This document shows positions 8,506 to 10,293 of a stretch of DNA of 32,445 nucleotides, piece by piece. The stretch is from an uncultured bacterium. Its GTDB lineage: Bacteria > Chlamydiota > Chlamydiia > Chlamydiales > JAAZZY01. The stretch spans positions 6,790 to 39,234 of the forward strand of contig CAYGMF010000005.1 in NCBI GenBank assembly GCA_964351075.1, read 5' to 3'. The notes beneath the pieces are model-generated. The model did no database searches. It was given only the letters and a program-made list of their open reading frames with translations, and had not been told where the DNA came from. A program made the position numbers and the translations under genes. Positions within the stretch are counted from its first letter, which is position 1; each line of letters opens with the position of its first letter.

Positions 8506-10293
8506 ATGTTAGGTACAGGATTTGGAGCTCAACGATTAGCAACTGGTGCAGCATCTCTTGCTGGTGCAGCATACACAGCATATAGTTCAGGGATGGGCTT
8601 TACACCACTTGGATTCGCAGCAACAGGTATGATGGCTATTAATGGCGTGAGTTTGAAGTCTGTGGGATTAAGTGCACTAGCAGGTGGAGCATATGGAGCG
8701 CATTGGCTCTACCATGGTGGACTTGGGGATTCCATTGGAAGTATAATTGGCAATACGATTAGAGCAGGTGTAAAGGGAGTTGATCTTGGAGAAATAGGAC
8801 GTACCTTTACAGCTTCATTTGGAGACGGTATTGACGAAGGGATGAAAGGGCTAAACTTTCAAAAACTGGTAGATACCTGGTATAAGGAGTATGGAGCAGT
8901 TTCAATTGAGCTTTTTAATAAAGTTATTACTGAAACAAGTAAGGTTGTTACCGATATCATAAGAGATAATACACAGACGATTTTAACAAGAGTCGTCCCT
9001 TTGGTGGCTTTAGGAACTGCTGTTACAGTAGGAACTCCACTTGCAATTTATTACGGGTATAAGCGACTTGTACACAATATAGGTAAGCCTAAGCTTGCAC
9101 AGGAAATAAAAAACTATAATCCTCTTGATCGAGCTTATGAGATAGGTGTAAATATCCTAATGGCTTCGGGAAGTAGTATGAAAACGTACTATAAGTGGTT
9201 GTTTGGAACACACTTAGCAACACAGGCCTTGACAGCTTTAACCGGATTGGCCTATGTGGCTAAAAACATCTATTTTGAAGAGCCTTATGGAGGGAGATGG
9301 GCTACTGATTTTTTAGGAGACTCAATGTGTTACGCTGGTCACTCACTGGTAGGAGAATTGCAGTATGCTCATAGAAGATGTAATCTTTCAGCTCACAATG
9401 TTTTAAGTTATGAGGCTGTTACAACAGCAACTTTAGCTATCGCTTTTGCTGCTACAGCATATAGAGCTGGAACAGACCTATATGAATATGTTAAAGAGAA
9501 TTGGGGAGTCACAAGAGGTAAGCCTATTTTCAATGACTCTATAAGAGAAACTGTTGATGACGTGATTGAAGCAACTAAAAATCTACAGCGAAACGGAGGT
9601 TACTTCCAAAACATGATCCTTTATGGACCAGGTGGAACAGGAAAAACCATGATCTCCAAATACATCGCTCGAAATTCAGGAATGAACTACATCATTATGT
9701 CTGGAGGAGACCTTGCCCAGTACATTAAGCGAGGAGAACACGTAACTGAGCTGGTTAAAATCTTCGATACTGCAAAAAACTCTGCAGGGGCAACCATCCT
9801 CTTCATTGATGAAGCTGAATCTCTTTGCCGAGATAGAGGTAAGATGAATCGCGATGAACTCTTAGAACTTTTAAACTCTTTCCTAAACCAGACAGGAGAG
9901 CCAAGTCGAAAAGTAATGTTAGTTTTAGCAACGAATAGACTTGAAGATATTGATGAAGCTGTCCTCTCTAGAATGGATAACAAAGTATTTGTTGGACCAC
10001 CAGAGTTTGAACAAAGAAAACAAATCCTTTCGATGTATGCTTCGCACTTCTTTACCAAGTTAGAAAGAAGAGCGTTTTTCCATGAAGAAGCTTTGAATGA
10101 ATTGAGCACTAAAACAGATGGGCTCACAGGTAGAGCTCTCTTCAAAATGTTAAATGCTCTCTCAACGAAGCAGAAGTGTACAAAAACAAACCGTTTGACT
10201 CAAGATCTCGTAAACCTCGTAGTAGATCGCTTTGTGAAGCAGGAACTCGAAGTAAAAGAGAAAAGAGAAGCTGCTAGAGTAGCCGCTGCTTAA
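8506..10293 (+). CDS. Membrane-associated AAA+ ATPase, ATAD3-like
   Basis: Walker A GPGGTGKT, Walker B ILFIDEAE, sensor-1 LATN, SRH AVLSR. ATAD3-type motifs [9 protein letters not shown], ATKN...[39 protein letters not shown]. ATG 8506 chosen for its AAGAAGGGA SD; TTG 8473 is the alternative. Confidence 0.88.
   Translation: [595 protein letters not shown]

Follow-up and report, generated by a model that had tools for sequence, protein, structure and literature searches.

A chlamydial membrane AAA+ ATPase that is best placed in a bacterial sister family of the mitochondrial protein ATAD3

Introduction

Does a chlamydial genome encode a relative of ATAD3, an ATPase of the mitochondrial inner membrane, and, if so, where might such a protein come from and what might it do? 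The question is raised by the gene for P0001, a protein of 595 amino acids (aa), which is encoded in a stretch of 32,445 nucleotides (nt) from an uncultured member of the Chlamydiales (contig CAYGMF010000005.1, positions 6,790 to 39,234). This whole stretch is called the window in the following. An earlier note, made from the sequence of the window, had pointed out a resemblance of the protein to ATAD3 and had proposed either a host-derived gene that is used as an effector, or a bacterial branch with relevance for the origin of ATAD3. Here we report that P0001, judged by its sequence, is best filed as a member of a bacterial sister family of ATAD3 and is homologous to the core of ATAD3, which consists of a transmembrane (TM) helix, a juxtamembrane motif, and an AAA domain.

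ATAD3A and ATAD3B are AAA+ ATPases of the mitochondrial inner membrane and are composed of an ATAD3_N domain (PF12037) and an AAA domain (PF00004). Animals as well as Plasmodium depend on ATAD3 as an essential protein, and it has been linked to human mitochondrial disease. According to the text of a recent preprint, ATAD3 was first thought to be limited to multicellular eukaryotes, it is absent in fungi and present in apicomplexans, and its ATPase ring is described as matrix-facing (bioRxiv 10.1101/2025.10.06.680775). The same text, supplements aside, treats ATAD3 as a eukaryotic protein, and neither "bacteria" nor "prokaryot" occurs in it. Judged by titles and the openings of abstracts, no paper on a bacterial or chlamydial homolog of ATAD3 was found in the literature.

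Results

Searches in the PDB revealed no chain of a solved ATAD3 structure among the 60 best sequence matches to P0001 or to an ATAD3 protein of Sorghum, and, therefore, real ATAD3 sequences were brought into the comparison. A profile was generated from the AAA domains of 19 short members of the bacterial family and was compared with proteins of 645-2000 aa. Among the 120 matches listed, 73 combine PF12037 with PF00004 and represent ATAD3, and they reach 185-211 bits with a single AAA domain. Eleven further matches are long members of the bacterial family, and the remaining 36 are multi-AAA or Cdc48-type proteins, which arrive at comparable totals only as sums over two or more domains. The ATAD3 proteins stem from, among others, Sorghum (annotated as "ATAD3-A"), Camellia, Citrus, Setaria, Closterium, Chromochloris, Saprolegnia, Ectocarpus, and Thalassiosira.

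ATAD3 proved to be the nearest AAA domain outside of the family in both search directions. In a phmmer search with P0001 the best single-domain scores of all 73 ATAD3 proteins are 96-140 bits (these 73 proteins, together with a single row whose id is lower than P0227, occupy ranks 190-263), in contrast to 80.3 bits at most for the other non-family AAA domains compared. The best domain in the PDB, among three alignments shown, is the D2 domain of Afg2 with 79.8 bits. In the reverse search the ATAD3 protein of Sorghum reaches up to 140.8 bits against the bacterial family, with a median of 111.6 bits, versus 75 bits or less against the other AAA proteins compared; the groups were set by id range and length and include a few misfiled multi-AAA rows. 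The top-ranked PDB match of the Sorghum protein has 68 bits for its best single domain (one alignment shown). A BLASTP alignment of P0001 and Sorghum ATAD3 has 34% identity over 256 aa, with an E value of 4e-37.

Three other searches listed no ATAD3. A word-index search with the whole protein listed members of the bacterial family alone. The 150 best matches of an exhaustive search comprised family members and multi-AAA giants, and no ATAD3 was seen among them (66 proteins were scanned with Pfam, and 25 of the 57 families found are shown). A search restricted to shorter proteins returned 11 fragments of family members and no ATAD3. The clusters retrieved from the ESM Atlas were unspecific AAA clusters (a cluster of Streptophyta fragments with 0.97, followed by Myxococcota and others) and were not used as evidence.

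The resemblance that had been pointed out in the earlier note goes well beyond a generic AAA similarity, as tested with 73 real ATAD3 proteins, and the AAA domain groups with ATAD3 instead of generic bacterial AAA families. For the strings that the earlier note had given for human ATAD3A, equivalents were found in the proteins of plants, algae, and stramenopiles. The likeness is also picked up by pipelines.

The likeness is not restricted to the AAA fold. A motif scan revealed that a TM helix followed by [ILV]G[KR]PxL upstream of the Walker A motif is present in 51 of the 73 ATAD3 proteins, and 110 of 186 family members have it as well. In both groups the motif precedes Walker A by nearly the same number of residues, with a median of 77 for the ATAD3 proteins and of 79 for the family. 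In P0001 the distance is 182 residues, and in its subgroup it is 160-210, because of an inserted hairpin. A family member with a short linker, P0171, could be aligned with ATAD3 of Saprolegnia (P0297) from the motif through to the C-terminus (BLASTP, 28% identity, 320 aa, E value 7e-34). Within the AAA domain, V413, E438, T463, G464, R543, and K547 are each shared by at least 70% of the family members and at least 70% of the ATAD3 proteins, in contrast to at most 20% of the outgroup domains. T463 and G464 form a "TG" in place of "MDG", and R543 belongs to an "SGR" in place of "SGAD". A longer lid with a C-terminal helix is a further common feature. ATAD3 and the bacterial family have one unit in common, in which a TM helix is followed by the motif [IL]G[KR]PxL..E, about 35 aa of linker sequence, an AAA domain with signature residues of the ATAD3 type, and a helix at the C-terminus. 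We regard AAA domain, TM helix, and juxtamembrane motif as specifically ATAD3-like, not generic.

There are also clear differences to ATAD3. The bacterial family lacks the ATAD3_N coiled coil and has an N-terminal region that is variable and partly rich in Gly and Ala. An extra hairpin of about 125 aa is present between motif and AAA domain of P0001. Where the classical pore loop is located in the alignment, P0001 has QYIKRGEH, which contains an aromatic residue and is two residues longer, in contrast to PLG(S/G) in ATAD3 proteins. Lastly, the family is bacterial, patchily distributed, and multi-copy.

A careful tree was calculated with IQ-TREE (LG+C20+F+G4 with posterior mean site frequencies, PMSF) from 81 AAA domains and 254 columns, i.e., from 51 representatives of the family, 20 ATAD3 proteins, and 10 outgroup domains (Cdc48 D1 and D2, FtsH-type, and multi-AAA). 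The family and ATAD3 together are separated from the outgroups with a support of 100/100. The ATAD3 proteins form a clade (100/100), the stem of which has a length of 0.98 changes per column, and all 51 bacterial rows lie outside of this clade. Of the bacterial rows, 48 form one clade (90/87). The other three (P0201, P0179, and P0192) are divergent, and their positions at the base or next to ATAD3 are weakly supported (85/83 and 83/49). Because of these three rows the whole family is a single clade in only 2% of the bootstrap trees. Forcing its monophyly costs 8.3 log-likelihood units (lnL), and with a p-value of 0.31 in the approximately unbiased test (p-AU) monophyly is not rejected. The paraphyly of the family in a first quick tree was not upheld, as a tree constrained to monophyly gained 30.8 lnL; removal of one long outgroup row and relabelling of P0236 as a family member resulted in three clean groups in the quick tree. 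One of the three divergent rows, P0192, has 343 aa and is encoded on a JGI/IMG contig of 1095 bp; it is the row beside the ATAD3 clade at 83/49.

Judged by these sequences, ATAD3 has its closest relative in the bacterial family, and vice versa. ATAD3_N is absent in the bacterial proteins, and so we speak of a sister family and not of an ATAD3. ATAD3 may either be the sister of the family or have arisen from its base, and the branching order is weakly supported.

The intact motifs of P0001 indicate that it should be an active classical AAA+ ATPase. Pfam assigned PF00004 to aa 370-497 (95.5 bits, 4.5e-27) as the only domain; neither ATAD3_N (PF12037, E up to 0.1) nor peptidase M41 (PF01434) was matched. 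The Walker A motif GPGGTGKT comprises aa 374-381 (nt 9625-9648), Walker B contains D435/E436, sensor-1 is N477, and an arginine of the second region of homology is present; the AAA domain includes R489 and R543. G374, G377, G379, K380, D435, and R489 are invariant in 66 sequences, and T381, E436, N477, and R543 are conserved in at least 90% of them.

An AlphaFold2 model of P0001 was calculated from an alignment of 39 sequences, with a mean predicted local distance difference test score (pLDDT) of 73 and a predicted template modelling score of 0.59. Foldseek searches with this model placed the AAA domains of p97, FtsH, Rix7, and Rpt on top, with single-domain alignments of about 240-260 columns and 17-28% identity. 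ATAD3 was not among the listed matches; no ATAD3 chain was present in the PDB lists either, so Foldseek probably had none to rank.

The N-terminal region of P0001 starts with about 68 weakly hydrophobic residues rich in Gly and Ala, and a hydropathy scan revealed no strong TM helix in this region. It varies among the family members and is little conserved in the 39-sequence alignment. Apart from the ATPase, the best-conserved part of that alignment is the TM helix with the juxtamembrane motif, and P165, P178, Y183, and Y185 of the helix as well as P195 and L197 of the motif are invariant. The Kyte-Doolittle windows 157-182 are hydrophobic, and AlphaFold2 models one helix over aa 149-192, in agreement with the TM helix that the earlier note had seen before IGKPKLAQE; this and the other peptides quoted there are all found in the translation. 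A basic stretch of 12 residues rich in Lys and Arg follows the TM helix, and a short strand at aa 198-202 was modelled within the motif. The insertion consists of two helices (aa 206-257 and 302-332, pLDDT about 70-85) and an intervening loop of about 45 aa with C275 and C292, and it is missing from short paralogs and from ATAD3. Paralog P0171 has an N-terminal hydrophobic segment and a second TM helix ahead of the AAA domain.

The word-index search revealed 264 relatives, the best 120 of which are typically 45-56% identical in the AAA domain and have variable N-termini; named records among these are few and belong to metagenome-assembled genomes (MAGs) of Chlamydiae, Chlamydiales, or Rhabdochlamydiaceae. 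The exhaustive search yielded 342 proteins at E values up to 1e-30. At the same threshold the family is present in 18 of 300 sampled genomes of the phylum (one additional genome was not scorable), which belong to 12 of 165 genera and a single order. It was found in none of the 29 genomes of genus g8, which have a size of 1.0-1.2 Mb, and in four of the five genomes of family f16; genome G129 contains three copies. With this distribution the gene does not belong to the universal housekeeping genes of chlamydiae, which would have been at odds with the proposal of the earlier note. The family is accessory, with paralogs and variable N-termini.

The genome from which the window is taken (1.52 Mb, 96% complete) contains two copies. 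The second copy is located at one end of another contig and is truncated by it (C13:1-909, minus strand, locus L002). It shares 61% identity with P0001 over aa 339-492, and its layout is short and ATAD3-like, i.e., a TM helix, IMGKPKLAME, a linker of about 40 aa, and an AAA domain with YGPPGTGKT, without the insertion. The same genome has an FtsH-like gene (contig C30, locus L003), which shares 34% identity with P0001 in the AAA domain; it is broken by a run of N, and its N-terminal part is unreadable.

A pattern scan with two family-specific peptides, in which each of 185,579 species was represented by one genome, resulted in 23 loci, all of them in MAGs. According to the record titles 18 loci are chlamydial, two belong to "Verrucomicrobia(e)", and three to an "uncultured bacterium"; the family is so far almost confined to records titled as Chlamydiota. 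One locus (L017) is titled "MAG: Chlamydia trachomatis isolate MsH-30apr19-142", in contrast to the lack of the family in the 29 genomes of genus g8; this label was probably mis-assigned to an environmental chlamydia. The idea that the genes are plasmid-borne was rejected, as a plasmid search gave no match.

ATAD3_N was also sought across the family. PF12037 is present in none of the best 120 relatives with precomputed Pfam assignments, it is not among the 25 families listed of the 57 that were found across 66 members, and a profile scan of genomes gave no match in 151, in this case without a positive control.

At five of the 23 related loci a homologous, unannotated open reading frame (ORF) of about 470-576 aa, divergent to the AAA gene, is located directly upstream of it (L021:3570-5297, L030:3576-5231, L029:3704-5134, L033:3772-5193, and L022:1-435, all on the minus strand). 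It had no Pfam match in three examples tested, it is absent from the window, and no other recurrent partner was found among the 23 loci. This ORF may be the partner gene of one subclade.

Discussion

The origin of the bacterial family can be discussed in two directions. The earlier note's idea of a host-derived gene obtains no support from the tree, in which the bacterial family lies outside of the sampled ATAD3 clade (100/100), and the family lacks ATAD3_N. As the family is not nested in the sampled ATAD3, recent host mimicry is not indicated. The other idea, a bacterial branch with bearing on the origin of ATAD3, fits the data; the direction of transfer is left undecided by the tree (p-AU 0.31).

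To an ancient acquisition from eukaryotes, which concerns the origin only, we give somewhat less than an even chance. A stem lineage or an unsampled lineage of ATAD3 would have entered the chlamydiae, lost its coiled-coil N-domain, and then diversified. This would be in line with the wide distribution of ATAD3 in eukaryotes, as plants, green algae, and stramenopiles are among the matches listed, and animals and apicomplexans also have ATAD3 according to the text of the preprint cited above (bioRxiv 10.1101/2025.10.06.680775). It would also be in line with the presence of the bacterial family in few genomes of a single phylum, with the mostly chlamydial titles of the MAGs in the species-wide scan, and with the plain sister relation, which is not rejected in the careful tree and is favoured by the constrained tree of the quick set. 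However, the sampled ATAD3 proteins form a fully supported clade on a long stem without any bacterial sequence within, three family rows lie below or beside ATAD3, the family is rarely a single clade in the bootstrap trees, and the AAA domain of the family is slightly nearer to classical AAA domains than that of ATAD3 (80 versus 68 bits, best PDB domain shown).

The opposite direction, which we put forward only tentatively and consider to be unlikely, would be that the TM-motif-AAA core of ATAD3 goes back to an ATPase in the inner membrane of chlamydiae or of their ancestors. It would have been gained by an early eukaryote before the major lineages diverged, and would have been fused to a coiled-coil N-domain.

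With regard to function, we see about an even chance that P0001 is a resident hexameric machine of the inner membrane that remodels or organizes components of the membrane or the envelope. Classical AAA proteins form rings. The Lys and Arg residues after the TM helix suggest, by the positive-inside rule, that motif and AAA domain are cytoplasmic. P0001 would thus be anchored in the inner membrane of the bacterium and have its AAA ring on the cytoplasmic side, which is the topological equivalent of the matrix side of ATAD3, while its N-terminal part and the Cys loop (C275/C292) would be located on the periplasmic side. The two-helix insertion would bring the chain back to the same side. Upon formation of a hexamer the conserved TM helices might be bundled above the ring, and the energy of ATP hydrolysis would be spent on the remodelling or organization of membrane or envelope proteins. 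As the ring would be on the side equivalent to the matrix, we favour a resident inner-membrane machine; topology, oligomeric state, substrate, and cellular location of P0001 are inferred.

It is also conceivable, but in our opinion rather improbable, that P0001 is a secreted effector, probably of a type III secretion system, which inserts into the membrane of the inclusion or of a host organelle. Its ATAD3-like ring would there be exposed to the ATP of the host and would mimic the ATAD3-type membrane organization of the host or interfere with it. Such a role would suit a family that is almost restricted to records with Chlamydiota in their titles, i.e., to obligate intracellular bacteria, that is patchy (including its absence in genus g8) and multi-copy, and whose members occupy unrelated genomic positions across genera. 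A conserved enzyme domain that is preceded by hypervariable N-termini, an N-terminus that is modelled as disordered or with low confidence, and a eukaryotic organelle protein as nearest relative would also be compatible with it. However, the window contains no linked secretion signal, chaperone gene, or type III secretion gene, and one strong TM helix plus a wide hairpin with its loop of about 45 aa differ from the compact bilobed hydrophobic domain of the Inc type. In addition, the strict conservation of TM helix and juxtamembrane region in mitochondrial ATAD3 and in the family is most simply explained by the same setting in an energized inner membrane.

Several points weigh against the placement of P0001 in a sister family of ATAD3 with a resident role in the inner membrane. 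The family is one clade in very few bootstrap trees, with three divergent rows at its base. The ATAD3 sample consists of proteins of at least 645 aa, so that animals and many protists are missing, and the ATAD3 of amoebozoa, the most plausible donors for a transfer from host to chlamydia, is perhaps outside of the sample. The outgroups of the tree were of the Cdc48, FtsH, and multi-AAA types, and other classical AAA clades were compared via the PDB sequence search only. The patchy spread and the copy numbers of up to three per genome are also traits of effector families, and the combination of hypervariable N-termini with a eukaryote-like domain is typical of chlamydial effector families as well. 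Lastly, the N-terminal 157 aa are modelled with pLDDT values below 50, so that how often the chain crosses the membrane, and hence on which side the AAA domain lies, is deduced and not read from the model.

That P0001 is merely a generic bacterial AAA protein with a superficial likeness to ATAD3, either a relative of FtsH minus the protease or an IetA-type anti-phage ATPase, is very improbable, despite the automatic annotation of the records P0003 and P0098 as "ATP-dependent zinc metalloprotease FtsH", FtsH as the top NCBIfam match of P0001 (TIGR01241), 80 bits with the PADLOC model of IetA, and the Foldseek matches described above, since ATAD3 is clearly ahead of the other non-family AAA domains in both search directions and has a non-AAA motif and derived residues in common with the family. 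The FtsH or generic-AAA reading was rejected on the basis of an FtsH score of 76 bits versus a cut-off of 600, the lack of an M41 match, and the higher scores of ATAD3. The IetA reading was likewise rejected: its score is at the level of generic AAA proteins and under all 73 ATAD3 scores, and the neighbouring genes are lnt and lpxC, neither of which scored as a protease family in NCBIfam, so that no IetS protease is adjacent.

FtsH resembles P0001 as a classical AAA protein with a bacterial membrane anchor N-terminal of the ATPase. It has two hydrophobic segments around a variable region, and some paralogs of the family (P0171) recall that layout. However, P0001 lacks the M41 protease domain, FtsH-type domains belong to the outgroup across the 100/100 branch, and the genome has a separate FtsH-like gene. 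Cdc48, p97, and Afg2 provide the best PDB matches by sequence (Afg2 D2) and by fold (p97), but they are soluble tandem-AAA proteins beyond the same branch. They have "MDG", "GRFD", and "SGAD", whereas the family and ATAD3 have "TG", "SRMD/DRID", and "SGR".

A bacterial sister family would be valuable as an outgroup that separates ancestral features of ATAD3 (TM helix, motif, "TG", and "SGR") from eukaryotic additions. In this way the coiled coil would be identified as a eukaryotic gain, and the missing aromatic residue at the pore-loop site of the alignment as a eukaryotic loss. The family also offers a concrete case by which a chlamydial contribution to the mitochondrial proteome of eukaryotes can be argued for or against, and the smaller bacterial proteins may be easier to purify for studies of structure and mechanism. 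If a chlamydial origin were true, the family would represent the surviving bacterial lineage of a key organizer of mitochondrial membranes and a tractable single-membrane model of ATAD3; if the proteins were secreted, an organelle-type ATPase would have been put to use as an effector.

Genomic Context and Additional Observations

The features of the gene, its product, and its surroundings are summarized in Table 1. An in-frame TTG is located at 8473, upstream of the ATG start codon. An ortholog, P0002, is 86% identical to P0001 and of equal length (595 aa). The GC content of the gene is 0.40, the same as that of its neighbours, and no composition anomaly was found. The gene's own terminator, as the earlier note had described it, could be located 3' of the coding sequence.

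Table 1. Positions of the ATPase gene, its protein regions, and the adjacent elements in the window.
Feature	Position (nt)	Strand	Remark
Coding sequence of ATAD3-like membrane AAA+ ATPase (P0001), 595 aa	8506..10293, stop codon included	+	ATG start
AAGGGA, Shine-Dalgarno-like	8494..8499	+	6 nt 5' of ATG, read from sequence
N-terminal region, aa 1-157	8506..8976	+	AlphaFold2 pLDDT <50 for aa 1-133, 135-153, 155-157
Conserved TM helix, about aa 162-185	8989..9060	+	Kyte-Doolittle maximum 1.91; strong TM at about aa 160-185 by hydropathy
Juxtamembrane motif IGKPKLAQE, aa 192-200	9079..9105	+	counterpart of ATAD3 LGKPSLVRE type
Subfamily-specific insertion, about aa 206-335	9121..9510	+	two long, partly hydrophobic helices and Cys loop
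AAA+ ATPase domain, lid, and C-terminal helix, aa 338-590	9517..10275	+	pLDDT >90
Intrinsic-terminator-like hairpin, 13 pairs and T run	10318..10356	+	hairpin at 10318-10346
Upstream neighbour lnt (apolipoprotein N-acyltransferase)	6715..8382	+	TIGR00546, 186 bits vs cut-off 133
Downstream neighbour lpxC	10471..11364	+	TIGR00325, 265 bits; then fabZ, lpxA, fmt

The gene is flanked by lnt on one side and by lpxC, fabZ, lpxA, and fmt on the other, each of which scores above its NCBIfam cut-off. In genomes without the AAA gene, lnt is located directly beside lpxC-fabZ-lpxA in five of five cases checked (two genomes of the same family, two of genus g8, and one of another family). Therefore, the AAA gene was inserted into a conserved cluster in this genus, in agreement with the earlier view that it splits an otherwise adjacent lnt-lpxC pair. 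The order lnt-AAA-lpxC recurs solely in a genome of the same genus (L004, the same place as L015), and the loci of other genera contain neither lnt nor lpxC within flanks of about 1.5-6 kb.

The stop codon of lpxC abuts the probable start codon of fabZ (ATG at 11364; both genes together span 10471-11837 of the window). The two products match the two halves of the model for a bifunctional LpxC/FabZ protein (NF009667, 305 and 171 bits, respectively), and the arrangement looks like a split version of the LpxC/FabZ fusion. Two ORFs on the minus strand are located further away. One at 4428-5501 (357 aa) has no NCBIfam match at 1e-10, and the other at 13539-14903 (454 aa) encodes a protein with a hydrophobic segment at its N-terminus.

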